From a virus (taxonomy: Duplodnaviria > Caudoviricetes): a stretch of 64,000 bases of DNA. The stretch's first letter is position 1. Every line of letters starts with the position of its first letter. Below the pieces are notes generated by a model. That model saw only the letters and a program-made list of their open reading frames with translations, did not search any database and had not been told where the DNA came from. A program made the translations under genes and the position numbers. Positions 1,902 to 46,881 of the stretch are shown piece after piece. The stretch covers positions 28,744 through 92,743 of IMG/VR virus record IMGVR_UViG_2791355405_000002; one strand, 5' to 3'.

Positions 1902-1948
1902 GAGGCCCTGCCTTCCTTGGTCGTGGTCCGGCCATCAGCCGAACCATT

Positions 1949-1988
1949 CGATTTAATTAAACCATGGCCGGTGCGCCGGAACAACCCC
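1949..1988 (-). promoter_or_regulatory. Conserved promoter/operator cassette
   Basis: Minus strand GGGGTTGT-N-CATGGTTTAATTAAATCG. Confidence 0.75.
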
Positions 1989-2179
1989 TATGGGTGGGCC
2001 GCCAGTCGCAGCCGGTCCCCGCCCTCGGCCCGTATGAGCTGCACCGCCAGCGCGTCCTCGTAGGAGAGCACCGACGCCTCGCAGACCCGGCCCAGCCGGA
2101 CGGAGTGCACCGGGAGCGTGTCCCACATCTGCACCGGTTCACCGCACGCAGGGCACTCAGCCCACTCGCCTCGCAACAC
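1988..2179 (-). CDS. Small zinc-finger protein
   Basis: CPACG...H...C motif; GACCAAGGAA leader upstream. Confidence 0.6.
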   Translation of the reverse strand: MLRGEWAECPACGEPVQMWDTLPVHSVRLGRVCEASVLSYEDALAVQLIRAEGGDRLRLAAHP

Positions 2180-2281
2180 GGCCCGCCTCCTGCTCTTCCT
2201 GGTTCCTTGGTCATTACGTCACTTGTCCGGCGAATCGCCGAACGCGCCGGGGCCGGACGGTGAGGCCCGGCCCCGGCTCGG

Positions 2282-5200
2282 TCAGTCCTTCGCGTAGCAG
2301 GAGGCCCAGTCACGGGCCGCTTTGGAGGCCCCGGCCGTGATCGGCACGCCCTTGAACTCGAACGTGAACGCCTCCAGCACGGCCTCCTTGACGCCCTCGG
2401 CCATGTGTTCGGGGACGCACAGGACGACCTCGTCGTGCACGACGCAGCGCAGCCACTCCAGGGCCTCGGGGATCATGTCGACCAGGCGCAGCAGCGCCTC
2501 GCACATGATGTCCCGGGCGCCGCCCTGGCCCATGAGGGCCGGGGCCTGCGTCCAGGCACGGTCGGGGTTGCAGCGCATCTTGCGACCGAACCCGTTGTCC
2601 AGCATCTCGCCGGCCGCCGCCCGTTCCCGGACCTCGGTCCGCCAGGCGCACAGCCCGGGGTACTGCGCGTTCATCTGGTCGTCGAACTTCTGCGCCAGCT
2701 CCAGCTCCACACCGCTGTTGGCGATGCCCTTCACGGACATGCCGTAGTTCCAGCCGTGGCCGATGCGCTTGGAGTTGTCGCGCCACTCGCCATCGTGGCG
2801 GCCGAACACGGCATCGGCGATGCGCGAGTGGGCGTCTTCGCCGGGAGCGAAGTTCGCCATGTACGCCGGGTCCTGGCAGTGCCCGGCGATGGCGCGCATG
2901 TCGACCTGGTCCAGGTCGAAACAGATCAGGACGTGGCCGTCGTCGGCGATGAGGGGTCGCCTCTGCGTGACCTTGCCGCCGCGCTTGGCCATGTTGGTGA
3001 CCGAGGGGCGGACGTACGCCCACCGGCCGGCGCCCTGAAGGTCGCCGACCTGCGGGTGGATCCGGTCGCCGACGAGGTGGTCCATGATCTCGGCGTACTT
3101 CTGGACCGACGAGGTCACGGTGATGATGTGGCCGCACATCTCGCGCAGGGCGTCTACGTCGGCGCCGCGCTCGGCGAACATGCGCAAGACGTTCGGGTTG
3201 AGCATGGCGGGCACCTGCCGGGCCCCGGAGCCCTTGCCCACCATGTACGACGCCTCGCCCAGCGCGTCCTTGTTGAGGCTGATCAGCCCGGAGGCCGTCT
3301 TGGGGTAGTGCACCGCACCCCGGTCGGCGAAGGCCTTGATGATCGCCTCACGGCCTTCGTTGGTGGACAGCGGGGCCTTGACGGACTCGTCGGTGAAGAC
3401 GCGGTTCTTGCCCCGGCCCCTACCGACGGACTTGGTCAGGGGTACGCCGCAGTGCTCGTGCAGCCACTCCAGGGACTCCTGCCGCTTGGCCGCCTCCGCG
3501 TCGACCAGCTCGCGCAGGACGGGGACGTCGACCTTCCAGCCGGTCAGGGTGGGCCGGTGCTGGATGTGGGCGACCCGCATCTCCCGGCGGACGTAGTCCG
3601 AGGGCTCGCCCAGAGCGCGCCGCACGCCCCGGGTGGCCTGGAGATCGCCGCTGAAGTACACGCTCAGCTCGTTGACCGGGATGCGCCCGTACCCGAGGTC
3701 CGTGCGCTCGGCCTTGTCCAGTTTGCGGCCGCCGGCCTCCTCCGGACCGTACTTGAAGGCGAGCGCGGCCAGGTCGTCCGTCTTGCCGGGCAGGCCGTTG
3801 CGCTCGGCTACCTGGTCCAGGCCGTAGTAGCCCTTGGTCGCCCACGGCTTCTCGTGCGCGGCGCCGGGCGGGTCGATGGTCTGGACCCACCGCAGGGTGT
3901 CCATGGTCTTCGCGGCCAGCTTGTCGTAGTCGGCGCCGTGGTGACGGGCGAGCGCCATCAAGTCGAACCCGAGCAGGTTGTGGCCGTACAGCTCGTCGGC
4001 GTCCTCCAGCCGCTTGATCAACTCCTCCACGGAGTTGACGACGACCTCGGTGCCGTCCTCGGTGACGTAGCCGGCGAGGCGGACGTACGGGTCGCCTCCG
4101 AGATCCTTGTGGACGAACAGGCGCTTGGCGCTGTGGGTCTCCAGGTCGAACCCGATGACGCCGCCGGCGCGCGGCGGGGTGGCCGCGTCATCCGGAGCCG
4201 GGGACGGGGCGGGGACGGTGGCCGCGCGGGGAGCCTGATCAGCTTCCGCTTCCGCGAACGGATCACCCGCGAAAGGGTCCGCGTCCGGGTCGGTCAGAGG
4301 ACGTGTACCCGCTGTACCCTCTACCCCTGTTCCTCCTATGTGTGAGCCAATTTCTCGGTTATAGGGAGGAGAGGGTACAGGGGGTACACCATTGTCCTCG
4401 GTGGGGTTGACCTCGTCTTTTCCGTTCGGGTCCTGGAAGCGCACCCCGAGCCACGCCTGGTAGTTGACGCCCTTGGGCTCGTGACCGCCCAGAGTCGATC
4501 GCCCGTCCCGCGCCCGGATCTTCTTCCGCTGCACGCCGTTCCGCGCGCACTCGTCGTGGCTTCCGAATCGGGACACGAACGTGCGGTCCGTCCATTCCCG
4601 GTGACCTTTGTCCTCCAGGTACCGGTTGAAGACCTCGTGCAGCTCCCGGGCGAGGATGTGGGAGTTCCAGTCGAACGTCAGGCAGTCCCCGATGAACGAC
4701 AGAATCAGGTCCGACTCCTTGCGCCACTCCAGCGTGTCGTCCTCCACCCGCTTCGGCGGCGGCGGCATGATCTGTCCGGCCGCGTACCACTTGCGGGCGC
4801 CCTCCACGGCCCACGCCAGGACGGCCGCCGACACCCGCTCATCCGTCGCGAGGCGCTGCCGCAGGGTTCCGTCACCGGGCTTGTCATTCGGGCCCGTGCA
4901 CGGCTCCCCAGCCTTGCGGAAGGTGAACGGGAAGCACAGCAGCGCCAGACGCCGCCACGTACCGTGGTCGGTTTCGTCCACCAGAGGCCTGTGGTTCGTG
5001 TTGATGATCAACGTGTGCGACGTCGTGAAGGTGACCGGGTCCTGCCTCATCCGGCGGGCCTTGATGGCCTTCGTACCGGCGAGCTGCTTGGCCCGGTTGA
5101 CGTCCAGTCGCTTGGCCTCCGGGGTCTCCTCCAGTACCGCGAGCCGGGCCCCCATGAAATCCATCATCTCCGTGGGGTGGTTGTCGCTTGCGTTCCCGAG

Positions 5201-6619
5201 CAGGGCCCGGTGGGACACCACTGTGTGGTATCCGTCCTTCTCGCCGGCCGCGCGGGCGAGCGCGTCCATGACCGTGCTCTTGCCGTTGGAGCCGCCGCCC
5301 TGGAGCAGGAGGATGATGTCGTCTGGGGGGATGTGGCCGGTGAGCGCCTGCCCCATTCGGAGCTGGAACCAGTCGATCACGTCATCCGGCACGGCCTCCA
5401 GAGCCTTGTCCCAGTCAGGGTGCCGGGCGCCCGGGACATAGTCCGCCTCCGTGATCTTCGTCATGAGCCGGTCGGGGTCATGCGGCGTGAGCACGCCGGT
5501 GCGCAGGTCCAGGATGCCGTTCTGGCAGTTGAGCGCGTCAGGGTCGTAGTCGAAATCCGCCGCGTGAGCGACCAGACTGCCCTTGGACAGCTTCATCAGG
5601 TTGCCCAGCTTGGACGCGGACAGGGCCCCGCGCCAGCCGTCCATCTCCGCGCGGTAATCCTTGCTCGGCTCGGCGCGCTGCTTGTCCAGCACCCGCTGGA
5701 ACCCGGAGAGCGCCCATTGGCGGATCTCCTCCAACACCACCGGCTCGGGGCACTCGCCCCAGGTCTTGCCGTTCCAGCGCATCCACCCGAGGCCGTACGC
5801 CCAGCGGTACGTGCCGTCCAGAGCTTCGGAGCACACGGTGTCGGCGAGAACGGCGTCACTGAATGCCGCGTCGCGGGAGTTGTCGCTGGGGGTCTCCCGG
5901 GTGGCTGCGTCGCGCAGACCCTCAAGCGTTCCGCCGGCGTGGAAGTAGTCGTCCACGCCCTTGACGGCCTGGCCGTCGACTTCCTCTGGGACGATCAGAT
6001 ACCGGATGTCGGCAGCACCCTTGGACTCCAGCCACGCCCCCAGCCGCCGCATGGCCTTCAGAACGCTCATGTTGTGGCGCGCGTCGGAGTCGAAGCAGAT
6101 CACGACTGTGCGGTCCTTGAGGGGGATGTCCTCCCAGTCGCCGAGGGTGCCGTGTCGTGCACGCCAGTTGTAGACGCCCGAGATGGTGACGACTGGAAGT
6201 CCTTTGGACGCTAGGCAGTCCGCCTTTTTCACACCCTCGGTGATCCACAGAGGCGCCGAGACGGTACGGACAGCAGTCGCCATCAGCGGCGGTACGTCCA
6301 GGCGAGCTTTGCCGACCGCAGCCGCGTACTTCACAGGCTTCTCATCGCGCACCTGCGGCTGGCCGGGCTTGAACATTGCGCCGATCTGCTCACCGGTTAC
6401 TCGGTAGATCGGGATGAACAGGCCCGGGAACGCCGTGTCTTCGCGCCAGGCCCACACCGGAATGGACGCCTCGCGCAGCCGCGCGCGGTCCTCGTCGGTG
6501 CCGTACAGCGTCTCGTACCCGCGAGCGTCGCGGATCTCCGGGGCGATCTCGCTGGCGTCCAGTTCCGCCAGGTGGTGATCTGACAGCTGCCCCGCGTTCG
6601 CTTCCACGTACGTGGTCAT
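2282..6619 (-). CDS. Replicase fusion: TOPRIM-type (DUF3854-like) primase + D5/P4-type SF3 helicase + 3'-5' exonuclease/family A DNA polymerase
   Basis: WITEGVKKAD, CFDSD, KGVDDY (TOPRIM); GGGSNGKST Walker A; FDLET, GHNLLGFD (exonuclease); DLDQVDMR, KRIGHGWNYG, VHDE (PolA motifs A, B, C). Confidence 0.9.
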   Translation of the reverse strand: MTTYVEANAGQLSDHHLAELDASEIAPEIRDARGYETLYGTDEDRARLREASIPVWAWREDTAFPGLFIPIYRVTGEQIGAMFKPGQPQVRDEKPVKYAAAVGKARLDVPPLMATAVRTVSAPLWITEGVKKADCLASKGLPVVTISGVYNWRARHGTLGDWEDIPLKDRTVVICFDSDARHNMSVLKAMRRLGAWLESKGAADIRYLIVPEEVDGQAVKGVDDYFHAGGTLEGLRDAATRETPSDNSRDAAFSDAVLADTVCSEALDGTYRWAYGLGWMRWNGKTWGECPEPVVLEEIRQWALSGFQRVLDKQRAEPSKDYRAEMDGWRGALSASKLGNLMKLSKGSLVAHAADFDYDPDALNCQNGILDLRTGVLTPHDPDRLMTKITEADYVPGARHPDWDKALEAVPDDVIDWFQLRMGQALTGHIPPDDIILLLQGGGSNGKSTVMDALARAAGEKDGYHTVVSHRALLGNASDNHPTEMMDFMGARLAVLEETPEAKRLDVNRAKQLAGTKAIKARRMRQDPVTFTTSHTLIINTNHRPLVDETDHGTWRRLALLCFPFTFRKAGEPCTGPNDKPGDGTLRQRLATDERVSAAVLAWAVEGARKWYAAGQIMPPPPKRVEDDTLEWRKESDLILSFIGDCLTFDWNSHILARELHEVFNRYLEDKGHREWTDRTFVSRFGSHDECARNGVQRKKIRARDGRSTLGGHEPKGVNYQAWLGVRFQDPNGKDEVNPTEDNGVPPVPSPPYNREIGSHIGGTGVEGTAGTRPLTDPDADPFAGDPFAEAEADQAPRAATVPAPSPAPDDAATPPRAGGVIGFDLETHSAKRLFVHKDLGGDPYVRLAGYVTEDGTEVVVNSVEELIKRLEDADELYGHNLLGFDLMALARHHGADYDKLAAKTMDTLRWVQTIDPPGAAHEKPWATKGYYGLDQVAERNGLPGKTDDLAALAFKYGPEEAGGRKLDKAERTDLGYGRIPVNELSVYFSGDLQATRGVRRALGEPSDYVRREMRVAHIQHRPTLTGWKVDVPVLRELVDAEAAKRQESLEWLHEHCGVPLTKSVGRGRGKNRVFTDESVKAPLSTNEGREAIIKAFADRGAVHYPKTASGLISLNKDALGEASYMVGKGSGARQVPAMLNPNVLRMFAERGADVDALREMCGHIITVTSSVQKYAEIMDHLVGDRIHPQVGDLQGAGRWAYVRPSVTNMAKRGGKVTQRRPLIADDGHVLICFDLDQVDMRAIAGHCQDPAYMANFAPGEDAHSRIADAVFGRHDGEWRDNSKRIGHGWNYGMSVKGIANSGVELELAQKFDDQMNAQYPGLCAWRTEVRERAAAGEMLDNGFGRKMRCNPDRAWTQAPALMGQGGARDIMCEALLRLVDMIPEALEWLRCVVHDEVVLCVPEHMAEGVKEAVLEAFTFEFKGVPITAGASKAARDWASCYAKD
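4303..4389. repeat. Origin-like inverted repeat, copy 1 (inside the replicase linker)
   Basis: GTGTACCCGCTGTACCCTCT ... AGAGGGTACAGGGGGTACAC, 19/20 match, 47-nt AT-richer spacer. Confidence 0.75.
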
Positions 6620-6675
6620 GAGGGGGATCCTGCTTCCTTGGTCAGTGCTTCCTTGGTCTGCGGGGGCTTGGGCAC

Positions 6676-7385: not shown

Positions 7386-7612
7386 TGCTCCTCCTTGATG
7401 GTGTGTAAGTACGCGTAGCGATGATACCCGCGTTTACACACGCTTATACACGGGGTACCATAACGGACATGAGGCCCGACGGAGCCTCGCCGACCCAGAC
7501 CAAGGAACTCCCGGGACGCCGGGCGCAGATGGGGCAACGTCACGGCCCCGCAGACCCCCTTGCGGCCTGCGGGTTCGGTGATTGTGCACCCCGCTGGGAG
7601 GATCACGGACTC

Positions 7613-7924
7613 ATGACCAAGGAAGAAACGGCTTACGCGGCTGCACTGAACCGTGTCGGCTCCGACGTTGAAGACGGCTTGCTGTTCTCCGAAGCGCTCG
7701 GCCGGATGCGGCGCGAGGCGCTGCACTCCACCGGCCCGCACGCCGACTGCCCGCACTGCTGGTGGACGGTCCCCTGCAACGGAGCGCTGGACGGGGACCA
7801 CTTCCTCGCCCTGTGGGAGCACCTGATCACGCGTCACGGGGTGGACGTCTGGCTCGCGACGGCCCCGGCCCGCGAAGTCTGGGACCGCGCCGTGGAAGAG
7901 TTCAAAGGAGCGATGGCCGCATGA
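7613..7924 (+). CDS. Hypothetical protein (CxxC, H..H)
   Basis: Start of the rightward operon; start site uncertain (7468 is an alternative). Confidence 0.55.
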   Translation: MTKEETAYAAALNRVGSDVEDGLLFSEALGRMRREALHSTGPHADCPHCWWTVPCNGALDGDHFLALWEHLITRHGVDVWLATAPAREVWDRAVEEFKGAMAA

Positions 7925-10410: not shown

Positions 10411-10782
10411 GTGACCAAGGAATACGTGAAGGCGATCGGCGTCGATTTCGATGGCGTGATCCACGACTACGCCCGAGGCTGGCAGGGCGGGCTCATCTAC
10501 GGGGAGATGCTCCCCGGGGCGGCCGAGAGCCTGCGGGCCCTGATGGAGACCTACGCGGTGTTCATCCACACCACGCGCGAACCGCACACGGTGGTGCCGT
10601 GGATGAAGGACCGTGGCTTCCACGCCGAGGCTGACAACGACCCCGGCCGCCGGTTCTGGGACACCACGGGCACGCTGCTGGTGACCCAGCGGAAGCTGGT
10701 GGCCATCGCGTTCATTGACGACCGGGCCATCCCACACCGCACATGGGACCAGACGATGCAGGCCGTCGCACAGCTCTACTGA
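10411..10782 (+). CDS. HAD-superfamily phosphatase/nucleotidase-like protein
   Basis: VDFDGVI motif I and FIDDRA motif IV. Confidence 0.75.
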   Translation: MTKEYVKAIGVDFDGVIHDYARGWQGGLIYGEMLPGAAESLRALMETYAVFIHTTREPHTVVPWMKDRGFHAEADNDPGRRFWDTTGTLLVTQRKLVAIAFIDDRAIPHRTWDQTMQAVAQLY

Positions 10783-10859
10783 GTGACCCGGGGAGGGCTG
10801 CGGCGGCCCTCCCCACCTGGCCGTTAGGCCATTGACCAAGGAAGCAGGAAGGTACCGCA

Positions 10860-13601
10860 ATGACTCAGTCGACCCCTGAGCGCAAACGCTGCTCCGTGTG
10901 CCCCGGCGAGTACGCCGTCACGGCGAACGGGACGATCCGTCACCACTTCACCGACAACCCGGAGCTCCAGGCCGGGCCCGACTCCCGCAAGTGCCGGGGC
11001 GTCGGCGAGCTGCCCGCCGGCGAGCAGACGGCCGATGACCCGGCGAACGGCCCGCAGTGCCGCCTGTGCAAGCACCCGGTGGAGCTGACCGGCAACGGCC
11101 GGGCCCGCAGCCACCTCACCCCCGAGCAGACGCCCCGGCCCTGCCCCGGCGGCAGCGACTTCCCGCTGGGCACGTACCCGGACATCCTCGGCACGACGGA
11201 CGGCCTCGTGGCCACGCTCGCGGCCGACTGCGAACACGTGCCGGTCGGCCAGTGCTACGGCTGCCACGGCGCGGCCGGGAACCCCGTCAGCGACGCCGAG
11301 CTGGAGGTCATGGCCGAGGCGCAGGGCACCGGCGCGGCGCCGTGGGGCGTGAACCCGGACGCCGTGACGCAGCAGACCATGGCCGACCAGTTCAAGGGCG
11401 TCGGCGAGGCGGTGATCTGCAATTGCGGGGCCTCGTGGCCGACGAACGAGGAGATGCAGCGGGTCGGGCACGGCCTGGAGCAGTGCCCCCAGGACCGCGC
11501 CGCTGGGCCGACCATGGACGGCCCTTACCAGTTCCCCTCTGTCCGACCGATGGCGGCCGACGCCCTCAGCGATGCTGAGCGGTTCATGGGCGCGGCGCCG
11601 GCGACGCACACCGGCCGCCCGTCGATGCACAGCGGCGGCGGCCTCTCCGACGCGGAGCGAGAGCGCCTCGCGGCTGTCGTTGCCAAGGACCACCGCACCC
11701 CGGAGCAGAAGGCCCGGGACGCGCGGACGTCGGAGCTGACTCGGGAAGTCATCAAGGTGCTGGAACAGCGCAGCCCGGAAGAGAAGGCGGAGACGGCGGC
11801 TCGCATGGACCGCACCGCGTCGGCCGCCCTCGGGCTGCCGGTCGACCCGGCGCTGAACCGGCCCGAGGACGTGGAGGCGCACGTCGTCACTGACGACAGC
11901 GACGACCCGGAGCACGCGGACGACTGCCCCGGCTGTCCAGACGATGAGCCGCAGACGGGTCCGGTTCGCGTCGGCGACTTGGAGTACGGCGACGTCTTCG
12001 TCCGGCGCGGCACCGCTATGCGCGTGACGAGCGCGGGCTACGGCCTGGTGGAGGCCATCGTCGTGGACAACGGCCCGCACGCTGGGCGCACAGGTGAGCT
12101 GAAGAACCCCGACGAGGTGGTGGAGAGGATCGCCACCAGGACCAAGGAGCAGGAGACCAAGGAATGCACGGACGACAGGACGGCGACGTCGCCGCGTTCT
12201 TCGGCGGCATCGACGCCGACAACGACCAGCCGGCCGACGGTCCCGGCCCCTGGTTCGAGGCCGCCTACGAAGGCGAGTGCTCCGGCTGTTTCGCCGAAAT
12301 CGGAATCGGTGACATCATCCGCGCCGACGGTGCGGGCGGCTGGGAACTCCAGGGGTGCTGCGGTGACGACTGATCAGAGCGCAGCGGCAGCCGCATTCCT
12401 CGGCACTGACCGGCCGGCGGCCCCGGCGGGCGCGGCGCAGACACCCGGGCAGTTCCTCGCCGGTGCCGCCAGTTCGCGGGGCGAGGACGATACCAAGCGC
12501 GACCGGCACGGCCGGTACCTCATCCCGCACCCGGACACCGGCAAGGAGAAGGCGTGGACCAGGTCCACCACCTTCGCCAAGTCGATCAGCGACACTTACG
12601 CCCTGTCCCAGTGGGGGCTGCGCATGTGTCTGCTTGGTGCGACGAAGCGGCCGGACATCATCAAGCGGGCCCACGGCAAGCACGTCCGGGCGGACAAGGC
12701 CCTGCTGGACGAGCTGACGGCGGAGCTGAAGAACGCGGCGGGCGCCAAGGTGGCCGCCAACGACGGCACGGCGATGCACTCCTTCACGGAGCTGGCAGAC
12801 CGGGCGTGGCACTCCCCCGGCGGCCCGCGCAGCGTCCTGGACCAGGTGCCGGAGGACTGCCGCGAGATGGTCGAGACGTACATCCGGCTGCTGGAGGAGA
12901 CCGGCCTTGAGCCTGTGTCAGGGCTCATTGAGTTCACCGTGGTCGTCAAGCAGTACGGCGTCGCGGGCACCAGCGACAACTGCTACAAGGTCACCAAGCC
13001 GCTCACGCTGAAGATCGGCCGGGCTGAGGTCCGGCTGGAGCCCGGCCAGTACGTCATCGGCGACAAGAAGACCGGTAGGGATCTCGACTACGGATGGCAG
13101 GAGATCGCTATCCAGCTCGCGACCTATGCGCAGGGCATCAACACGTCCGGGGTCTGGGACAAGGCCCGCAAGGAGTGGACCCCCGACCCCCTCAACGGCT
13201 CCAAGGTACGGCTGGACGCGGGTGTCGTCATCCACCTGCCGGTGGACAAGGAGTCGGAGAAGACGCCGACGGTATACGGCATCGACCTGGAGTCCGGGTG
13301 GAACGCGGCCGTGCTGTGCGAGCGCGTCAGGGCCTGGCGCAACGTCCGCACCCTCGCCTCGCCGGTCATGGTCTCCGAGGCCGAGACGTTCGCCCCGGAA
13401 CGACCTGAGCCGACCGTCACCACGCGGACGACGGTACGGCCGCCGACGCTGATGGACCGGGCGCAGTCGGTCACGTCCAACGGCGAGGCCTCGGCCGTCT
13501 GGAAGGAGGCCATCACGGCCGGCCTGCCCAAGGACGAGGTGGATGAGCTGGTCGACGTCATGCAGTCGCGGCTGAAGAAACTCGCCGAACCCGGAGGCTA
13601 G
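10860..13601 (+). CDS. Zinc-finger N-terminal region joined to a C-terminal PD-(D/E)XK exonuclease (nuclease may also start at GTG 12363)
   Basis: Two CxxC..H..C motifs; C-terminal GTAMH, AGTSD, IGDKKTG, QLATYA. Confidence 0.75.
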   Translation: MTQSTPERKRCSVCPGEYAVTANGTIRHHFTDNPELQAGPDSRKCRGVGELPAGEQTADDPANGPQCRLCKHPVELTGNGRARSHLTPEQTPRPCPGGSDFPLGTYPDILGTTDGLVATLAADCEHVPVGQCYGCHGAAGNPVSDAELEVMAEAQGTGAAPWGVNPDAVTQQTMADQFKGVGEAVICNCGASWPTNEEMQRVGHGLEQCPQDRAAGPTMDGPYQFPSVRPMAADALSDAERFMGAAPATHTGRPSMHSGGGLSDAERERLAAVVAKDHRTPEQKARDARTSELTREVIKVLEQRSPEEKAETAARMDRTASAALGLPVDPALNRPEDVEAHVVTDDSDDPEHADDCPGCPDDEPQTGPVRVGDLEYGDVFVRRGTAMRVTSAGYGLVEAIVVDNGPHAGRTGELKNPDEVVERIATRTKEQETKECTDDRTATSPRSSAASTPTTTSRPTVPAPGSRPPTKASAPAVSPKSESVTSSAPTVRAAGNSRGAAVTTDQSAAAAAFLGTDRPAAPAGAAQTPGQFLAGAASSRGEDDTKRDRHGRYLIPHPDTGKEKAWTRSTTFAKSISDTYALSQWGLRMCLLGATKRPDIIKRAHGKHVRADKALLDELTAELKNAAGAKVAANDGTAMHSFTELADRAWHSPGGPRSVLDQVPEDCREMVETYIRLLEETGLEPVSGLIEFTVVVKQYGVAGTSDNCYKVTKPLTLKIGRAEVRLEPGQYVIGDKKTGRDLDYGWQEIAIQLATYAQGINTSGVWDKARKEWTPDPLNGSKVRLDAGVVIHLPVDKESEKTPTVYGIDLESGWNAAVLCERVRAWRNVRTLASPVMVSEAETFAPERPEPTVTTRTTVRPPTLMDRAQSVTSNGEASAVWKEAITAGLPKDEVDELVDVMQSRLKKLAEPGG
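12164..12373 (+). CDS. Nested small Cys-containing protein in an alternative frame
   Basis: Preceded by two GACCAAGGA leader motifs; WFEAAYEGECSGC..I..GD..CC. Confidence 0.6.
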   Translation: MHGRQDGDVAAFFGGIDADNDQPADGPGPWFEAAYEGECSGCFAEIGIGDIIRADGAGGWELQGCCGDD

Positions 13602-13859: not shown

Positions 13860-13955
13860 CGCGCGGTAGCTCAACTGGCTCAGAGCACAAGGACCCCGGC
13901 CCACCCCCGTGCCGGTAAGCCCTTGGAGATCCGGGTTCGAGACCCGGCCGCGCAC
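13860..13955 (+). ncRNA. tRNA-like RNA with extended anticodon arm and no canonical anticodon loop
   Basis: GCGCGG/CCGCGC acceptor, TA-GCTC..GAGC D arm, CAAGG/CCTTG stem enclosing 28 nt, CCGGG-TTCGAGA-CCCGG T arm. Confidence 0.75.
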
Positions 13956-14034
13956 CGGAGCCACGTACCACCGGCTCCCCTCCCTCGCTACCGGCGGCGG
14001 AGGAACAGGGATCAAAGGAACAAGGGATCACAGC

Positions 14035-14688: not shown

Positions 14689-15300
14689 TCAGGCCGCAAC
14701 CCTCCGCCGGCGGCGGGTCTGCTTCGCCGGTGGCGGCGCGAAGACCGGAGCCGGGGCCCCGGGGAGGGTCGGCCAGGCCACCTCGCGCAGGGCGTCCATG
14801 TTGGCCTTCGGCACCCGGACCACCGGCTCGCCGTAGGCGGCGTGACCGGCCGCCCGCAGCCACCACGCGTCGCACTGGTCGCCGCCCTTGTCGCCGGTGA
14901 ACTCCCGGCCCGCGTAGGTGAGCGCGGCCACGGCCATGGACGCCTTGTCGGCCCCGCCGTGGCCGGTGGCGTACAGCTTCAGCGTCTTCGTGTTGACCAG
15001 GACGAACGGGACGCCTGAACGCATGAGAACGAGTCGGACGGTGGCGTGGACCATCGGGATGACCTTGGCAGACGCTCCACGGAAGAGTCCGGGGTCATCC
15101 TCGATGACGGCGAGCTGTGGGCGGGCCACGCGCAGGGCCGCCGTCATGCGCTCCTCGATGCTCAGCAGGCGCCGGTCGCCGTCCCCGCGCGGTTTGATGA
15201 GCGCCGTGGAGTCGTCCGGGAAGCACACCCCCGTGCACTTCATCGACAGGTCCAGCCCCATGATGCGCATTCCTTGGTCCTCCATCCTGGGCGCACTCAT
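14689..15300 (-). CDS. ruvC: RuvC-like Holliday junction resolvase
   Basis: IMGLDLS..TG, AVIED, LKLYATGHGGADK, DQCDA. Confidence 0.85.
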   Translation of the reverse strand: MSAPRMEDQGMRIMGLDLSMKCTGVCFPDDSTALIKPRGDGDRRLLSIEERMTAALRVARPQLAVIEDDPGLFRGASAKVIPMVHATVRLVLMRSGVPFVLVNTKTLKLYATGHGGADKASMAVAALTYAGREFTGDKGGDQCDAWWLRAAGHAAYGEPVVRVPKANMDALREVAWPTLPGAPAPVFAPPPAKQTRRRRRVAA

Positions 15301-16318: not shown

Positions 16319-16588
16319 ATGACCGTGACCGCGCCGCAGCGCCCCCCGCGTGGACGCCCGAGGCCCGCAGAGACCATCGAACGGGACCGCAAGATCCTGG
16401 ACCTGCTCAAGGCCAACCCGGACGGGATGGCCCGCAACGTCATCGCCCAGGAGATGGGTCTGAACAAGTCCGTCACCTACCTGTCCCTGGACCGCCTGCG
16501 CCGGCAGGGTCTGGCCGAGAAGATCAGCCCCGAAGGATCCCAGGCCGACAAGGACACCCTGTGGGTCGCCACCCCCGGGGAGTCATGA
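16319..16588 (+). CDS. Winged-helix DNA-binding protein (candidate regulator)
   Basis: RGRPRP AT-hook-like motif, then ILDLLK..IAQEMGLNKSVTYLSLDRLRRQGL; operator variant upstream. Confidence 0.8.
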   Translation: MTVTAPQRPPRGRPRPAETIERDRKILDLLKANPDGMARNVIAQEMGLNKSVTYLSLDRLRRQGLAEKISPEGSQADKDTLWVATPGES

Positions 16589-31323: not shown

Positions 31324-31403
31324 CCACCCCGGGCCCCGGCGCCAGTTGGCGATACCGGGGCCCTGCTCCACCCTGACCAAGGAACTGAGGAATCGAGGGC
31401 GTC

Positions 31404-31709: not shown

Positions 31710-32315
31710 ATGGACCGGATCTGGCGGGACGCGCGCAGCATCGGGGACCTCGGCGGCGCGATGGCCGGGTGGCTGGAGGGCCGCATCGCCTCGCAGCCGG
31801 GTTGCCCGGCCGGGCCGGACGACGAGACGCTGCCGCTCGTGCCGGTGCTCGCGCGGCTGAACCGGCGGGGCTGGGTCACCACGTGCTCGCAGCCCGGCGA
31901 GACCGGCACGGCGTACGACGGCCGTCGGTGGGAGCAGCGCGCGGCCGTGGAGGGATGGATCTCCTGCCGGAATCCCCTGCTCGGCACGCTCATCCGCCAG
32001 GCGCGAGCGACCGGGCTCATCGTCTCCGCGTACGGCCCGGGACGCGCTGTGGGCCCGTCTCGCGGCCTCGTGGTGACCCGATGGGGCGACGAGCCGCACA
32101 CCGGCTTCGGAGGGCGCCCCAGGCGCTTCCAGCGCCGCGCGGAGCTGCCGGGCATCGGTCGCCAGGCCCGGCAGGAACTCGCCCGCCACGGCGTCGCCCT
32201 CGCCGTCATCGACCCCGTCTGGGGCCGGGACTCCGTGCTCTGGGACGCCCTGGACCAGGCCATCGGGCACCGCGCGGACGACACCGCACCGACCAAGGAA
32301 ATGAGGACCCTGTGA
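31710..32315 (+). CDS. Conserved actinobacterial hypothetical protein (DUF6919-like)
   Basis: WLEG.I.S.PG..D.ET..LNR.G..T..SQPG pattern, recalled rather than searched. Confidence 0.6.
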   Translation: MDRIWRDARSIGDLGGAMAGWLEGRIASQPGCPAGPDDETLPLVPVLARLNRRGWVTTCSQPGETGTAYDGRRWEQRAAVEGWISCRNPLLGTLIRQARATGLIVSAYGPGRAVGPSRGLVVTRWGDEPHTGFGGRPRRFQRRAELPGIGRQARQELARHGVALAVIDPVWGRDSVLWDALDQAIGHRADDTAPTKEMRTL

Positions 32316-33532: not shown

Positions 33533-33617
33533 GGGGTTGTGTCCGTCGGGCAGTCATGGTTTAATTAATTCATCGGGGCCGGTAGGGCCCGACAGACCAA
33601 GGAAAGAGGAACCGACC
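33533..33617 (+). promoter_or_regulatory. Promoter/operator plus leader cassette
   Basis: GGGGTTGT..CATGGTTTAATTAATTCA..GACCAAGGAAAGAGGAACCGACC. Confidence 0.8.
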
Positions 33618-34360: not shown

Positions 34361-34444
34361 GCCCTACGTGGACGTCATCGGCCCCGCGCCGGTGGCGCCC
34401 GCGAGGCGGCTCAGCCTCACCGACCAAGGAATGAGGAACCGATC

Positions 34445-34600: not shown

Positions 34601-34659
34601 CACACTGAGGCCCCGCCACCCGGCGGGGTCTTTCTCTTTGACCACGGAAGGAACTGACC

Positions 34660-34927: not shown

Positions 34928-34972
34928 GGGGGTTGTCCTAGCCCCGTGGCACAGGTATGATTTAGCTAAATC
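34928..34972 (+). promoter_or_regulatory. Promoter/operator variant
   Basis: GGTATGATTTAGCTAAATCGAC, same variant as at about 10375-10396. Confidence 0.7.
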
Positions 34973-35016
34973 GACCTGTTAGGTCGTAGACCAAGGAACC
35001 AGGAAAGTGGTGCCCC

Positions 35017-37483: not shown

Positions 37484-37573
37484 GGGGTTGTCCGCTCGTG
37501 AAATCCTTGGTTTAATTAAATCAGTCCGGGGTGCTTCCGGACTGACCAAGGAATCAGGAACGAGGAACCGACC
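37484..37573 (+). promoter_or_regulatory. Promoter/operator plus leader cassette
   Basis: GGGGTTGT..TGGTTTAATTAAATCA..GACCAAGGAA..GAGGAACCGACC. Confidence 0.8.
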
Positions 37574-38632: not shown

Positions 38633-38718
38633 CCGCGCGAGGCCCTGGGGTTGTCCGACCCCAGGGCCTCATGATTTAATTAAGTCAGCAACACCGACCA
38701 AGGAACGAGGAGATCAGC

Positions 38719-39376: not shown

Positions 39377-39501
39377 CTCACCTGGCCCCCGGCCACCGCG
39401 CCGGGGCCCTGCACCGCTGACCAAGGAATCAAGGAACGCGATTCGCCGCTGCGGCCGTATGATCCGGCCCGGCGCGCGGGGCGCCAAGGGGAGGACCGAC
39501 C

Positions 39502-39711: not shown

Positions 39712-39744
39712 CCCGTACGACGATCAAGGAACGAGGAACCGACC

Positions 39745-40491: not shown

Positions 40492-40528
40492 GTGGCCGGA
40501 CGGACCGGCCGGAAACGAGGAACCGACC

Positions 40529-40771: not shown

Positions 40772-40864
40772 CCTGAGCACCGCTCGGGTCTACGGTCCGG
40801 ACACTCCGGCCCGCAGACCCTGTGAGACAGCTCAGCCCAGGATCACAGAAACGAGGAACCGACC

Positions 40865-41485: not shown

Positions 41486-41524
41486 AACCCGTACATCCGA
41501 GACTGAGGAAACGAGGAACCGACC

Positions 41525-42109: not shown

Positions 42110-42288
42110 CCGCGATGGACGACGGCTGGCACTACGGCCCCGACGGCGAACCGGTGCGGGGCTTCCTGGAGGGCACGGCCTTCCAGCCGGACGACACCCG
42201 CGACCACATGGACGCGTGGGGCAGCGTGCACCCGGAGAACCTCAAGGACTGCGGCCCGTGCCGCAGCTCCGCAGCACTGACCGACTGA
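42106..42288 (+). CDS. Hypothetical protein
   Basis: GTGA coupling. Confidence 0.5.
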   Translation: MTAMDDGWHYGPDGEPVRGFLEGTAFQPDDTRDHMDAWGSVHPENLKDCGPCRSSAALTD

Positions 42289-42310
42289 CCACGGAAGCGA
42301 GGAAGAGACG

Positions 42311-42559: not shown

Positions 42560-42591
42560 CGGCCGGCCGGGAGCCGTGATCCCGGCAACGA

Positions 42592-42692
42592 GGGCCTATA
42601 GCTCAGTCAGGCAGAGCACCCGTAGAGCGCGAGCCTTGGTCGGTTCCCACGCGCTCCGGGAGACCCCGGTTCGAATCCGGGCGGGCCCGCCA
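42592..42692 (+). ncRNA. tRNA-like RNA with encoded CCA and an extended anticodon arm displaying CCUUGGUCGGUUCC
   Basis: GGGCCTA/CGGGCCC acceptor, GCTC/GAGC D stem, CCCG-TA-GAGCGCG...CGCGCTC-CGGG arm, CCCGG-TTCGAAT-CCGGG T arm, G-CCA end. Confidence 0.82.
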
Positions 42693-42728
42693 CCAACAGA
42701 CGACCGACGACCACGGAAGCGAGGAAGC

Positions 42729-43307
42729 GTGACCATCGACTTTCTGCCCGACGAGTACAGCCGGGTGACACAGACCACGGTGGTTGTCCCGGTGTCCGGC
42801 TGGGAGCCGCTCACCGACCCGTCCAACGGCTACGTCGTTCTCCCGTCCCGCGTGGAGATCACACTGCGGCTCGACGTGGGCACCCCGCGCGGGGACCGCA
42901 CTTCGGCGCACGTCGCCGTGGTCGGACCGCGACGGCTGAAGTCCGGGGCGGCTGGCCAGCCCATCATCGCCACCGGGTGGGAGAAGGCGCGCAACAAGGG
43001 CCCGCGTGGCTACGTCGCCCGGCCGGATCAGCTCACGGACCTGCTCGCCGAGAACCTGCCGGACGGCTGGGATCCGGCTCTGCTGGAGCTGCCGAAGCCC
43101 GTGCGGTACGGCGACACCGGCCACCGGATCCGCGCGCACGTCGTGAACGAGGAATGGGTAGCGCCGTACGCCGCCGAGGGCGTGGCCCTGTGCGGGGTCA
43201 CGCTCTACAAAATCCTGGGTCCGACGCCGGACGGTATCGCCGTCTGTGAGGAGTGCCTGGCCGTGCAGGCCGGACAGACCGACGACCACGGAAGCGAGGA
43301 ATCGTGA
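42729..43307 (+). CDS. Hypothetical protein
   Basis: Leader motif and GTG start after the tRNA-like RNA. Confidence 0.65.
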   Translation: MTIDFLPDEYSRVTQTTVVVPVSGWEPLTDPSNGYVVLPSRVEITLRLDVGTPRGDRTSAHVAVVGPRRLKSGAAGQPIIATGWEKARNKGPRGYVARPDQLTDLLAENLPDGWDPALLELPKPVRYGDTGHRIRAHVVNEEWVAPYAAEGVALCGVTLYKILGPTPDGIAVCEECLAVQAGQTDDHGSEES

Positions 43308-44230: not shown

Positions 44231-45043
44231 TCACGGCGTGAGGCGGCCGATCTTCGCGGCGATGGAGGCCACCTGCCGGGCCAGCTCCAGGCCGCGCTCC
44301 CGGTCGGCGGCCAGAGCGTCGGTGACGACCGTGCCGCGCAGGGCCTTGTGCGCGACGCGCAGCGCGGCCAGGCCCTGCTCCAGCCGGACGATGGCACGGG
44401 CCTGCTCGGGCGTGTGCTCCGTCGGCGGGTCGGTCGGTTCGTCCTCGGGCTCGCCGTCCGACTGGCTGGGGATGTAGCGCAGGCGCAAGGCCGCCGCCTT
44501 GAGCGTGGCCGCCGTGACCTTCGGCCCGGCCTGCTTCGCCGCGACGACGACCTCCCGCACGGCCTCCTCGCCGTGGGCGTCCAGGACCGGGCCGAGCATG
44601 CGGGCCTGTGACTCCACCGGCGGCGTGTCGAAAATTTTAGACATGACGAGCATGGCCGGGGCCGCGTCGATGAGCTGATAGGCCCGGCTACGGTCCATAT
44701 CCCACCGGCCGGCGATGTACTCGTCGAACGTCTCGTGGGACAGCTTGAACAGCCCCTCGTCGCGGATTGCGCGCAGAGCCGTCCCCGCCTCCACGACGAA
44801 CCGCGCACGCGCTGCCTTCAGCGACCGGCCAGCGGTCTCCTGAGCCTGGTCGATGGCCTGCTCGAACGCGGCCAGGCGTTCCTCGGCCGTGCCGGTGACG
44901 GCGGCCGGGTCGAGCGGCTTCGGGGCGAATGGGTCATCCCGCTCCACGGGCAGCAGGGGATTGATCGCGTCGTCATCTTCGGCTTTCGCCCGGTCACCCA
45001 GAAGCAGGCTGGTTCGGCTGACACGCTGAGCGGTAGGGCTCAC
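44231..45043 (-). CDS. Putative ParA partner / centromere-binding protein
   Basis: Coupled downstream of parA; L..IRD..L....ETFDEY...RW.M.RSRAYQLI HTH-like motif. Confidence 0.7.
   Translation of the reverse strand: MSPTAQRVSRTSLLLGDRAKAEDDDAINPLLPVERDDPFAPKPLDPAAVTGTAEERLAAFEQAIDQAQETAGRSLKAARARFVVEAGTALRAIRDEGLFKLSHETFDEYIAGRWDMDRSRAYQLIDAAPAMLVMSKIFDTPPVESQARMLGPVLDAHGEEAVREVVVAAKQAGPKVTAATLKAAALRLRYIPSQSDGEPEDEPTDPPTEHTPEQARAIVRLEQGLAALRVAHKALRGTVVTDALAADRERGLELARQVASIAAKIGRLTP
44623..44645. promoter_or_regulatory. parS-like palindrome, copy 2
   Basis: Identical 23-mer inside the ParA-partner gene. Confidence 0.6.
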
Positions 45044-45711
45044 CGGGTCACCTCCCGCAGGAGTTCGTCACCGAGCCGGGCCATGGGGCTGCCAGGCCGC
45101 ACGTCTGGCTTGGTACCGAAGGATTGGGCGTAGCTGCCTCGGCCGTCCTTGCGGGGGATCGTGGTGGTCAGTACCTGGAAGTTGTCGGCCACCAGGTCGT
45201 CCCGGGTCTCTTTGGTCGATGCCGTGTTGGGGTTCGGGTTGACCAGGGTGAGCAGGAACACCGTGCGCGGCGGGGTGAGGCCGAAGTCCCGCATCTGCTT
45301 GTACGCCCGCAGTACAGAACCTGCGCGCTCCATCTCCATCGGCGTCGGCGGCAGGGCGAATACGCACAGATCGATGTTGGCCAGGACAGCGAAGTGGGTG
45401 TTACCGCTGCGGCGGTCCCACGCCCCGGTGTCGATGAGGCAGAGTCCGTGTGGCGGGGTCAGCCGCCGTGCCTCCTCGCCGATCCTCGGTGCGGCCGGAG
45501 CGCGGTAGACCGGTGCGCCGATGTCCACCTTTTCGCTCCAGGTTAGAAGGCTCCCCTTCTCCTTCTCGCCGGGCTCGTCGGCGTCCTGGCCAATGGCCGG
45601 TACGCCGATGGACGCGTAGTAGGCGAGCACGTGCGCCCACGCTGTGGACTTGCCGCTGCCGCCCTTGCCGATGATGCCGATGCGCTTGCCCTCGGCCGGT
45701 AGTCGCGCCAT
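45040..45711 (-). CDS. parA: ParA family partition ATPase
   Basis: Deviant Walker A GKGGSGKST, QDAD, LIDTG. Confidence 0.88.
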   Translation of the reverse strand: MARLPAEGKRIGIIGKGGSGKSTAWAHVLAYYASIGVPAIGQDADEPGEKEKGSLLTWSEKVDIGAPVYRAPAAPRIGEEARRLTPPHGLCLIDTGAWDRRSGNTHFAVLANIDLCVFALPPTPMEMERAGSVLRAYKQMRDFGLTPPRTVFLLTLVNPNPNTASTKETRDDLVADNFQVLTTTIPRKDGRGSYAQSFGTKPDVRPGSPMARLGDELLREVTR

Positions 45712-45795: not shown

Positions 45796-45871
45796 TTGCC
45801 CCGACCGGGGACCTATGATTTAATTAAGTCATCCCCGGCTGATCGGGGTCTGACCAAGGAATCGAGGAGCC
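45796..45871 (+). promoter_or_regulatory. Promoter/operator plus leader cassette
   Basis: TTGCC..TATGATTTAATTAAGTCA..GACCAAGGAATCGAGGAG. Confidence 0.75.
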
Positions 45872-46144: not shown

Positions 46145-46177
46145 CCGCACCGCCCCGGGGCCGTTCGGCCCCAACCC

Positions 46178-46248
46178 GCTCCCGTGGGATAACGGATGTC
46201 CGTCGGGCCCTCAACCCGGAAGTGCCGGATCGTGACCGGCCGGGAGCA
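46178..46248 (+). tRNA. Atypical tRNA-Glu(CTC)-like gene
   Basis: All four stems pair (GCTCCCG/CGGGAGC, GGAT/GTCC, TCGGG/CCCGG, GCCGG/CCGGC); loop CC-CTC-AA has C33; T loop is ATCGTGA. Confidence 0.65.
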
Positions 46249-46291
46249 CGCCACCCCTCACCCGCATCGCTGACCAAGGAAAGCAGGGCAC

Positions 46292-46732
46292 ATGGACGCA
46301 CTCACGACACCTGGCAACGTCCGGGAGACCGCGTTGAGGATCACCCCGGCGGACGGCAAGCTGCTCATGACCGTGGTGGGCCCCTTCGCCGGTGGACACA
46401 GCGGCGTGCTGCTGTCGCCCGACTGGGTGCTCCCGCTCGCGGCGTGGTTCGCCGGCGAGGCGCAGCCGGTCGCTCTCGGGGACAGGCCGGGGACGCTGTA
46501 CAGCCGCCGCCTGGACGTGTCCGGCGATGAGTACTCCGTCGTCTGGAACACGCACACATGGGCCCGCCTGGACTGCCTGCTGCCGTTCGGTACCGCCCGC
46601 GTGCAGACCGGCCCACGCGGCAAGGCGTACGGCTCCACGGTGATGCTCTCGCCCGAGGCGCGGCAGGACGTCGCCGCGTGGCTGCGCCGGGCCGACGCCG
46701 AGGGCTGGACGCGGCGCGAACTGACGGCCTGA
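46292..46732 (+). CDS. Hypothetical protein
   Basis: Leader motif upstream. Confidence 0.65.
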   Translation: MDALTTPGNVRETALRITPADGKLLMTVVGPFAGGHSGVLLSPDWVLPLAAWFAGEAQPVALGDRPGTLYSRRLDVSGDEYSVVWNTHTWARLDCLLPFGTARVQTGPRGKAYGSTVMLSPEARQDVAAWLRRADAEGWTRRELTA

Positions 46733-46881
46733 GCTGGCCGTTCGGCGATCGCAGTACTCACTGGCACACTCCGTGCCCACGCCGTGGCTCACCCCCTGCC
46801 GGGTCACGGCCCTGGTGCCCCGTCCACCCCATGGGCGGGGCACCCGCAACTGGACCAAGGAACAAGGGGAGGCGGCCCGCC

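Follow-up and report, generated by a model that had tools for sequence, protein, structure and literature searches.

Which molecule reads the short tag GACCAAGGAA that precedes the starts of about 35 non-structural genes in a ~93 kb Streptomyces phage-plasmid, and is it read on the DNA or on the mRNA? We analyzed this question in a stretch of 64,000 nt (hereafter the window), in the whole 92.7 kb phage contig, C551, in the host contigs of the same genome, and in related phages. The tag is most likely a phage-only leader, read on the mRNA, which marks the translation start regions of non-structural genes. We give roughly even chances to a more specific reading, drawn from sequence comparison, in which this private translation leader would be paired by a tRNA-shaped RNA of the phage, probably to repress.

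A leader motif at the starts of non-structural genes

With at most one mismatch, GACCAMGGAA is present 55 times in the window, compared to 7.7 ± 2.4 times in shuffled sequences (maximum 15). The window contains 37 exact copies of GACCA(A/C)GGAA and C551 contains 40. Of the latter, 37 have a same-strand start of a coding-like ORF (third-position GC of at least 0.8) between −2 and +49. The motif is thus real, start-associated, and located on the coding strand, as the first-pass annotation had claimed, and an exact copy lies on the strand given there at every coordinate it had named. That annotation had also asked whether the motif is equally common upstream of host genes, which is not the case: the remaining 9.02 Mb of the same genome contain 27 exact copies, a density ~140-fold lower than that of the phage contig, and at most about 4 of these 27 stand before an SD or a start-like context.

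Counted from its first base, the motif most commonly lies 20–24 nt before the start codon, and counted from its last base 10–14 nt, with an ordinary SD (GAGGA) usually in between, 4–8 nt before the start. ATG is the start codon of 139 of the 156 motif-tagged genes in five genomes (89%). The motif precedes 31 of 91 non-structural genes and none of the 21 virion genes, whose lack of leaders had already been noticed. Copies show a single orientation relative to the gene; indeed, the exact antisense copies on the plus strand are all leaders of minus-strand genes, except for the loop of the tRNA-shaped RNA described below. Within the 10-mer, GACC and the AA at positions 9–10 are as invariant as GG, and the commonest single-mismatch variant is A6 to C (21 of 52). 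The downstream extension, N-GAGGAA(CCGACC), is real as well, although looser than the 10-mer.

On the minus strand, leaders are found at 1913–1922 (ATG 1901 of gene 1560–1901, 113 aa, distance 21; all distances are given between motif base 1 and the start codon) and 2203–2212 (GTG 2179, 63 aa, distance 33), and two tandem leaders, 6634–6643 and 6649–6658, precede ATG 6619 of the primase-PolA fusion gene (2282–6619). The minus-strand copy at 15270–15279 stands directly before a RuvC-like gene (ATG 15270 or 15261), where AAGGAA would itself be the SD.

On the plus strand, leaders occur at 7498–7507 (ATG 7529, 131 aa, distance 31), 10834–10843 (ATG 10860, 913 aa with an exonuclease-like C-terminus, distance 26), 25471–25480 (ATG 25495, distance 24), 26429–26438 (ATG 26456, distance 27), 29301–29310 (ATG 29321, distance 20, with a GC hairpin immediately upstream), 31375–31384 (ATG 31404, distance 29), 32291–32300 (GTG 32312, distance 21), 34422–34431 (ATG 34445, distance 23), 46272–46281 (ATG 46292, distance 20), and 46853–46862 (ATG 46882, distance 29), the last being the rightmost before the virion module. 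The C6 variant, also on the plus strand, is found at 25789–25798 (ATG 25809, distance 20), 29666–29675 (ATG 29686, distance 20), 31046–31055 (ATG 31075, distance 29, the gap containing two AGGA units), 34640–34649 (GTG 34660, distance 20), 42287–42296 (ATG 42311, distance 24), 42709–42718 (GTG 42729, distance 20), and 43284–43293 (GTG 43304, distance 20). The copy at 42709–42718 lies directly 3' of the tRNA-shaped RNA, and its position 6 is C or T in all five genomes.

Four copies had been proposed to overlap start codons. Two of them, both on the plus strand, do so: 10413–10422 over GTG 10411 (123 aa, with its own GGAGG upstream) and 23145–23154 over ATG 23143 (M-T-K-E, 130 aa). The copy at 7615–7624 (+) also overlaps an ATG, at 7613 (M-T-K-E), but this codon is in frame with the ATG at 7529, which has its own leader at 7498, and 7613 is therefore an alternative start or internal. 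The fourth, 60885–60894 (+), matches exactly but lies within the minus-strand virion module, on the strand opposite to the virion genes, and is probably due to chance. Two further plus-strand sites are exceptions: 12140–12164, a one-mismatch and an exact copy (the latter at 12155) inside the 913-aa gene and away from starts, and the exact copy at 39419–39428, which has no coding-like ORF within 50 nt, the next start being GTG 39502.

A separate promoter-like repeat

Upstream of many leaders we observe a GGGGTTGT box followed ~13 nt later by an 18-bp AT-rich palindrome, an arrangement that resembles a −35 box plus an extended −10. On the plus strand, the palindrome at 18190–18207 is just upstream of the leader at 18211–18220 (ATG 18231, distance 20), that at 18909–18926 is upstream of two tandem leaders at 18931–18954 (ATG 18968, 412 aa), and others precede the leaders at 28711–28720 (ATG 28732, distance 21; palindrome 28682–28699), 34989–34998 (ATG 35017, distance 28; palindrome 34957–34974), and 38696–38705 (ATG 38719, distance 23; palindrome 38671–38688). 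At 45852–45861 (ATG 45872, distance 20), a palindrome (45815–45832) and a hairpin are both upstream, as they are for the leaders at 33595–33617 (palindrome 33556–33573) and 37544–37573 (palindrome 37507–37524).

The box and palindrome appear to be promoters. As these are apparently a repeat separate from the tag, the tag itself is most likely read on the mRNA. The leader was also considered as a promoter in its own right and rejected: the 10-mer has no −35/−10 hexamers at the 16–18 nt spacing of a sigma-70-type promoter, and a promoter/terminator scan was empty at the leaders, the separate promoter-like repeat being found instead.

Conservation in related phages

The leader is under selection across a ~95 kb Streptomyces phage-plasmid family, as shown with four related IMG/VR phages of 96–99 kb and 75–82% DNA identity. 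Each contains 41–46 motif copies with identical spacing. The leader is kept in 46 ortholog pairs, while the flanking positions are only ~45% identical, which is near-random, and the copies overlapping start codons are conserved as well. The start-associated motif of G155, a more distant phage, is a variant, GACCAACGACC. We searched for a loop antisense to this variant and obtained no tRNA-like match, and the tRNA-shaped RNA is absent from the G155 contig, which is only 60% complete. A close sequenced isolated phage was not found, the best capsid match being 33% identical. In isolates, the element is seemingly maintained as a plasmid-like contig.

A tRNA-shaped RNA with a loop antisense to the leader

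A tRNA-shaped RNA encoded at 42592–42692 (+), with acceptor, D, and T arms and an encoded CCA, is the candidate trans-acting reader of the leader. Its anticodon stem is bulged and ~11 bp long, and carries an 18-nt loop whose core, CCTTGGTCGGTTCC at 42634–42647 (+), is antisense to the leader. With cmscan at the gathering threshold, the window matched only RF00005 (tRNA), and not the Rfam C4 family. The 14-nt loop core, CCUUGGUCGGUUCC, is invariant in all the family members recovered from IMG/VR, whereas the loop bases next to it differ among them and the stems contain compensatory substitutions.

The loop contains the exact antisense of GACCAAGG, and its other half is antisense to the GGAACCGACC-AUG spacer of a second leader class. 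Sites at which 9 nt or more are perfectly complementary to the loop are found 22–54 times per genome, compared to 3–10 times for the reversed loop. They adjoin the SD or the start and fall into two classes, which together cover the whole 14-mer. Both loop-complementary sites, A and B, are present in the full leader at 33595–33617 (+), which reads GACCAAGGAA-AGA-GGAACCGACC and is followed by ATG 33618. The leader at 37544–37573 (+), which precedes GTG 37574 of a C5 methyltransferase, has three AGGAA units and ends with GGAACCGACC. The same site-B spacer, GGAACCGACC, at 39735–39744 (+) stands before GTG 39745 and is preceded by a one-mismatch tag, GATCAAGGAA, at 39722. Site-B leaders lacking the 10-mer are found on the plus strand at 40519–40528 (ACGAGGAACCGACC-ATG 40529) and at 40855–40864 (before ATG 40865), and another plus-strand site-B leader, at 41515–41524, precedes ATG 41525 of a GmrSD_N-domain protein.

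Motif variation was compared with the loop. Apart from A6 to C, 27 single-base variants fall at positions 1–8, of which 18 are wobble-compatible with the loop. The A6 to C variant does not fit simple pairing, because it would yield a C·U mismatch, and the invariant AA at positions 9–10 in C551 is unable to pair with the loop. The upstream extension of the motif matches the loop complement partially: 69% of the copies have C at −2 and 42% have A at −3. The duplexes calculated with Duplexfold reach about −20 kcal/mol for leader genes, an advantage of only 3–6 kcal/mol over the other genes of this GC-rich DNA, and the loop is predicted to be partly self-pairing.

None of the relatives searched has an altered loop together with a matching altered motif. 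A scaffold pattern with the loop left free recovered only family members with an identical loop from IMG/VR, and only unrelated sequences among the matches listed for metagenome contigs. In 150 genomes of the host's family, the covariance model R1 detected only ordinary 77-nt host tRNAs, one of which was read as tRNA-Ala, and unrelated long tRNA-like RNAs. The proposal of the first-pass annotation that the RNA at 42592 reads the motif is thus partly supported: the antisense loop, its invariant core, and the match of its other half to the second leader class speak for it, while A6 to C and the small difference in duplex energy speak against it. An rRNA was also tried as pairing partner and rejected: the host rRNA operon contig does not match the antisense 8-mer, and only the anti-SD tail matches the AGGA parts.

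Proposed mechanism

The 5' part of the leader, (A)CC-GACCAA-GG, would be where the apical loop of the tRNA-shaped RNA docks; this loop may form a UUGGUC hexaloop closed by CC:GG. In the second leader class, the same loop would pair with GGAACCGACC-A, from the SD up to the start codon. We envisage a stable RNA that would be excised like a tRNA from early transcripts, accumulate over time, and then act on some 40 cistrons together. The likeliest effect would be that 30S binding is blocked or that the duplex is marked for an RNase, and the translation of non-structural genes would be turned off during carriage or in the late phase of infection. That the RNA represses rather than activates is a guess, and the AAGGAA part may additionally serve as an upstream SD-like standby site.

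A broader proposal, to which we would give a little less than even chances, is that a tRNA gene has become a guide RNA on a tRNA scaffold, whose enlarged anticodon loop would pair with a private 8–11 nt tag of about 40 cistrons and thereby switch the whole non-structural translation programme.

Alternative readers of the leader

An RNA-binding protein, as the first-pass annotation had also suggested, or the host ribosome alone are possible readers of the motif. The alternative that survives best, while being unlikely, is a cis-only enhancer, in which a tandem SD-like standby site (AAGGAA, then GAGGAA ~7 nt apart) would be read by the host 30S subunit without a phage factor and would raise initiation or re-initiation at cistrons located behind an intergenic gap. 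Indeed, AAGGA and GAGG are both complementary to the 3' tail of the host 16S rRNA, CCUCCUUUCU, some leaders contain two to four AGGAA-like units spaced by ~7 nt, and leaders are mostly found at genes with a preceding gap of at least 25 nt. Where the proximal SD is weak (CAGG), as in some leaders, AAGGAA may take its place, and at the RuvC-like gene it clearly does serve as the SD. Nevertheless, GACC and AA are as invariant as GG and yet unable to pair with the anti-SD, and the C6 variant is tolerated even though it breaks AAGGA. Such an enhancer would also leave the invariant antisense loop unexplained, and the motif is used neither by host genes nor by the highly expressed virion genes of the phage.

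Somewhat less probable still is an mRNA site for a phage protein, such as a RegA-like translational repressor, a RegB-like endoribonuclease by which early mRNAs would be inactivated in the SD region, or an adaptor to RNase E. In T4, the RegB endoribonuclease and the RegA repressor bring about a coordinated post-transcriptional shut-off of many early mRNAs, which are jointly controlled via sequences in their initiation regions (PMC1702504, PMC3014915). A short sequence common to the translation initiation regions of many mRNAs is the proposed likeness to our leader; the T4 readers, however, are proteins, and their motifs are GGAG within the SD or AU-rich at the start. The A/C degeneracy at position 6 is typical of protein recognition, most small proteins of the phage have no known family, and a stand-alone protein with the C-terminal (RNA-binding) domain of RapZ is encoded at 26015–26410. 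This RapZ-C domain is nevertheless the only RNA-binding domain, and no RegA or RegB homologue was detected, among ~65 phage proteins compared with Pfam or PHROGs. A protein alone does not explain the antisense loop, although a protein and the RNA could cooperate.

A site read on the DNA is improbable. It could be an asymmetric repressor operator, comparable to the stoperators of cluster A, that silences non-structural genes during carriage, or a part of a phage promoter. Stoperators are asymmetric repeats of ~13 bp, present many times per genome in intergenic gaps and oriented with transcription; they are DNA sites for the repressor, are spread over both genome arms, including the virion operons, and are not known to keep a fixed distance from start codons. 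The leader is similarly asymmetric (~10–13 bp), transcription-oriented, and present in ~40 copies in short intergenic gaps of a plasmid-like element that encodes small wHTH proteins, e.g. at 16319–16588. It differs from the distribution of the stoperators of cluster A mycobacteriophages, which are mentioned in PMC3203893, by its absence from virion genes and its fixed spacing of 20–24 nt. The tight spacing to the start codon with the SD in between, and the conservation of start-overlapping copies in relatives, also argue against a DNA site. Promoters and operators are already explained by the separate −35-like box and extended −10 element, and most operon-internal gaps, at ~45 nt, are too short for a promoter. 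Finally, no RNA polymerase, sigma factor, or ribosomal protein was found among the ~65 phage proteins scanned with Pfam or PHROGs.

A role in recombination instead of expression, with the motif as a linker or cassette boundary by which small genes are moved, as in the PeSL cassettes of T4-type phages, is very improbable and was rejected: 9 of the 31 leader genes of C551 have no ortholog in the four relatives and BLAST HSP ends are enriched near leaders relative to random positions, but these ends are rarer at leader starts than at leaderless starts (0.45 vs 1.03 per site), which means that gene boundaries alone account for the enrichment, and recombination needs neither an exact start spacing nor a strand rule.

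Relation to known systems

T-boxes are mRNA leaders near the SD that pair with the anticodon-loop region of a tRNA and control initiation, and translational T-boxes occur in Actinobacteria. Our leader is only ~25 nt long, has no T-box fold and, because it contains almost no U, no UGGN for an NCCA end. Moreover, the specificity of a T-box resides in the structured leader, whereas here it would reside in the enlarged loop of the RNA.

The C4 antisense RNA of P1/P7 and the CI RNA of satellite P4 are small stable RNAs cut from a longer transcript by tRNA-processing enzymes. Their loops pair with repeated targets at or near ribosome-binding sites, which shuts down a block of phage genes. The tRNA-shaped RNA resembles them in having a loop complementary to repeated targets at the phage's own ribosome-binding regions, the 22–54 sites per genome reported above. 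Nevertheless, C4 and CI act on two or three sites in one operon and are not known to be cloverleaf-shaped, whereas here the scaffold is a tRNA and ~40 sites are spread over ~60 kb.

The leader motif is a variant of the start-associated sequence (SAS) kind of element. SAS and extended SAS (ESAS) were described in cluster K mycobacteriophages by Pope et al. 2011 (PMC3203893), and motifs similar to SAS are known in Microbacterium cluster EF phages (PMC7302621). The comparison with cluster K, first drawn from the sequence alone, proved apt: both are short, asymmetric, phage-private repeats on the coding strand just before starts, restricted to non-structural genes, in one orientation, near-absent from the host, and with a strong preference for ATG (139/156 in our genomes; PMC3203893). 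Both are also conserved across subclusters or relatives before unrelated genes, and the palindrome upstream of a subset of leaders may correspond to the inverted repeat upstream of a subset of SAS.

Several features set the leader apart. Its sequence, GACCAAGGAA or GACCA(A/C)GGAA followed by N-GAGGAA, does not match the 13-bp SAS consensus, GGGATAGGAGCCC (PMC3203893). SAS are located 3–7 bp from the start and include the SD, whereas the leader 10-mer ends 10–14 nt upstream and a separate GAGGA stands at the RBS. There are ~40 leader copies per genome, compared to 11–19 SAS. About half of the SAS sites have the ESAS inverted repeat, with two spaced 17-bp arms; its possible counterpart here, upstream of ~10 leaders, is a single 18-bp palindrome with a −35-like box, which looks like a promoter or operator. 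Lastly, a conserved antisense RNA, the candidate partner, is present in the leader phage family, and none is reported in PMC3203893 or PMC7302621.

Implications

This phage family suggests, in a form open to testing, how the start-associated sequences of actinobacterial phages may work. It is an unusually clean case, with a conserved RNA as candidate partner, ~40 copies per genome, at least 10 sequenced relatives, and separate promoters. Should the pairing prove real, one small RNA would control dozens of phage genes, and Streptomyces engineering would gain a translation switch that is compact and orthogonal. If the proposed reading is true, SAS-type motifs would have a first mechanism, and other start-associated repeats of actinophages would have RNA partners still to be found.

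Leader sequences at the starts of non-structural genes

The motif GACCA(A/C)GGAA, which the first-pass annotation had described as an element-wide start-associated leader, occurs 55 times in the window with up to one mismatch, compared to 7.7 ± 2.4 in shuffles. The observation is confirmed, and all of the coordinates reported for the tag proved correct on re-scanning. It is not equally common in the host, since C551, the phage contig that holds the window, carries 40 exact copies, against 27 in the remaining 9.02 Mb of the genome. For 37 of the 40 copies, a coding-like ORF in the same orientation starts at -2 to +49 relative to the tag, and the most frequent distances from the first base of the tag to the start codon are 20-24 nt. 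An ordinary Shine-Dalgarno (SD) sequence, (G/A)(A/G)G(G/A)A, usually lies between the 10-mer and the start, a G is present at motif position +14 in 88% of the copies, and ATG is the start codon in 139 of 156 tagged starts in five genomes. Some leaders extend into GAGGAACCGACC-ATG, and genes 40529, 40865, and 41525 have this second half of the leader without the 10-mer.

The placement of the copies before gene starts on the coding strand, as initially proposed, does not extend to a pair at 12140 and 12155, inside a 913-aa gene, to an orphan copy at 39419, or to a copy at 60885 that is probably due to chance. The last was also among the copies thought to overlap start codons, and another of these lies at ATG 7613, which shares its reading frame with an earlier start codon, 7529, preceded by a leader of its own. 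The tag is found on 31 of the 91 non-structural genes, most of these 31 being preceded by a gap of at least 25 nt, and on 0 of the 21 virion genes, from which it had indeed seemed to be missing.

The phage element

The window corresponds to bases 28744-92743 of C551 (92,743 bp, 70% GC), which belongs to a 9.1 Mb draft genome and is phage-like along the entire contig. The left end comprises the major head and portal genes, and the right end of the window comprises minus-strand genes for the minor tail proteins, the tape measure protein (56624-60142), and an endolysin (49599-50570). The non-structural block of about 65 kb between these ends encodes a primase-PolA fusion (2282-6619), a helicase, an exonuclease, a RuvC-like resolvase, two C5 methyltransferases, a ParA-like protein (45040-45711), and an FtsK/TraB-like protein (20756-22894).

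No close isolated phage was found, the top capsid match being 33% identical. Streptomyces sp. NRRL S-455 and Streptomyces sp. NPDC017936 each have a near-identical design on a contig of its own (92-96 kb), and in several Streptomyces isolate assemblies (L295 and L296) the ends of such contigs are without host DNA. Near-identical designs are also present among IMG/VR contigs of 92-99 kb, several of which have terminal repeats and are 100% complete according to CheckV. The element is therefore a Streptomyces phage that probably persists extrachromosomally, and its own contig without host ends, together with the ParA-like and FtsK/TraB-like proteins, suggests a phage-plasmid lifestyle.

Conservation of the leader

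Identity to C551 is 75-82%, across 58-79% of its length, in four complete relatives (G001-G004). Each contains 41-46 exact tag copies, with a distribution of tag-to-start distances like that of C551. When C551 genes were paired with their reciprocal-best orthologs, both partners carried the leader in 46 pairs, neither did in 170, and just one did in 29, part of the latter being due to crude start-codon choice. The 46 leader-sharing pairs, whose mean protein identity is 66%, show about 45% identity at the positions flanking the 10-mer and 70-83% at the SD, the identity of the motif itself not being independent because the pairs were selected for it. Variable genes are tagged too, since G001-G004 lack an ortholog for 9 of the 31 C551 genes with a leader.

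G155 (L214, IMGVR_UViG_3300044693_000158) is a more distant relative, with a primase-PolA 58% identical. Its start-associated repeat, GACCAACGACC, differs from the tag and occurs in about nine copies before or overlapping start codons (L214 869, 2136, 2149, 14726, and 15013, for example). In a distant relative, the primase-PolA gene is followed directly by about 55 nt of (GA)n microsatellite (L212 14334-14390).

The leader is of the start-associated kind that Pope et al. (PMC3203893) described as the SAS of cluster K mycobacteriophages. Nevertheless, the sequences differ, the SAS contains the SD whereas the tag lies upstream of it, and the tag is about twice as numerous (PMC3203893). Beyond the SAS, the tag has a conserved candidate RNA reader.

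A separate promoter-like repeat

An AT-rich palindrome of 18 bp, with consensus ATGATTTAATTAAATCAT, occurs in about 20 copies in the non-structural region (including 18190, 18909, 23565, 24498, 28682, 30877, 32787, 33556, 34957, 37507, 38671, 39006, 40475, and 45815) versus 3 in all other parts of the genome. Upstream of the palindrome, at a distance of about 13 nt, a GGGGTTGT(C/G)C box is conserved. Judged from sequence, box and palindrome would form an extended -10 promoter (-35 TTGTCC, 17-nt spacer, TGnTTTAAT), with candidate transcripts beginning a few bases short of the leader, where the palindrome ends on its 3' side; these sites are probably early promoters with an overlapping operator for a dimeric regulator. 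A simple promoter scanner reports just one of the palindrome sites, because it accepts only -10 hexamers with A as the second base. A small GC hairpin is sometimes present between palindrome and leader. The phage also encodes a small wHTH protein (16319-16588).

Leaders inside operons follow the stop codon of the gene before them directly, in gaps of about 45 nt. These gaps and the fixed start spacing indicate that the tag is read on the mRNA and not as promoter DNA, and with the separate promoter-like repeat they make a promoter role for the tag unlikely. We consider it very probable that the tag has an mRNA-level function under selection.

A tRNA-shaped RNA with an antisense loop

A tRNA-like RNA was identified with Rfam at 42592-42689. 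Its fold is a cloverleaf, its CCA end is encoded, and the place of the usual anticodon arm is taken by an 18-nt loop on a stem of about 11 bp. Compensatory changes occur within the family in the acceptor, D, and T stems, and the loop core, CCUUGGUCGGUUCC, is identical in all family members recovered, while the flanking bases vary (AG..CA, AA..CA, CAU, UU, AA..AU, CGA..CG). The reverse complement of the core, GGAACCGACCAAGG, includes the tag core GACCAAGG, and for the G003-type loops (UUCC...) the complement spans the entire 10-mer. In the predicted fold, CC:GG pairing within the loop leaves a hexaloop, UUGGUC, which is precisely antisense to GACCAA.

Sites that are perfectly complementary to the loop over 9 nt or more number 22-54 per genome, versus 3-10 for the reversed loop. 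Class A sites, (A)CCGACCAAGG, are the leader, and class B sites, GGAACCGACCA, run from the SD to the A of AUG; between the two classes, every position of the invariant 14-mer is used, which would account for the conservation of all 14 bases. In five of five genomes, position 6 of the leader directly 3' of the RNA gene is C or T, speculatively a possible means of avoiding self-pairing in the precursor transcript. A hairpin immediately 5' of the RNA (42569-42587, CCGGGAGCCGTGATCCCGG), near-identical in five of five genomes, may be a terminator or processing signal.

The case for this pairing has its weaknesses. Among 52 single-mismatch start-associated sites, the commonest tag variant is A6 to C, with 21, and it would form a C.U mismatch with the loop. 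When it is omitted, wobble pairing would accommodate 18 of 27 variants at positions 1-8 (C3 to U, A6 to G, A5 to G, A2 to G); C4, G7, and G8 are invariant among the single-mismatch sites. As an after-the-fact reading, the variants would suit a tag in which GACCA does the docking, position 6 forms the duplex edge, and GGAA is fixed otherwise, for example as SD-like sequence. Duplex energies with the loop differ between leader genes and other genes by just 3-6 kcal/mol. Family searches, including IMG/VR and metagenome contigs, gave no changed-loop relative among the matches listed, and therefore no covariation evidence for loop and tag. A loop matched to the G155-type motif would be GGUCGUUGGUC; no tRNA-shaped RNA was found in the G155 contig, which is 60% complete. 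Overall, we give roughly even chances to the tag pairing with the tRNA-shaped RNA, probably for repression.

Other possible readers and structured RNAs

No alternative pairing partner was found in host rRNA. Among about 65 phage proteins scanned, RNA binding is suggested for just one, a 131-aa protein that consists of a stand-alone RapZ C-terminal (RNA-binding) domain (26015-26410, plus strand; Pfam PF22740, E = 3e-26). Similar genes occur in Streptomyces phages, such as TP1604, where they are annotated 'RNA binding protein', and the 131-aa protein is a candidate partner of the structured RNAs.

A second tRNA-shaped RNA, at 13860-13958 on the plus strand, scores 25.7 bits with R1, the covariance model for the tRNA-shaped RNA. 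A CAAGG/CCTTG stem enclosing about 28 nt replaces its anticodon arm, and no target of this RNA was identified. tRNA-like RNAs with long or odd anticodon arms are also present in other host-family genomes and distant phage relatives (L184 (G138:C2) 132572-132674 and 133104-133209; L189 (G098:C5) 89151-89240; G156:75676-75766; G157:76288-76369; G158:50545-50627). tRNA scaffolds with replaced anticodon arms may thus constitute a wider class in the family of the host.
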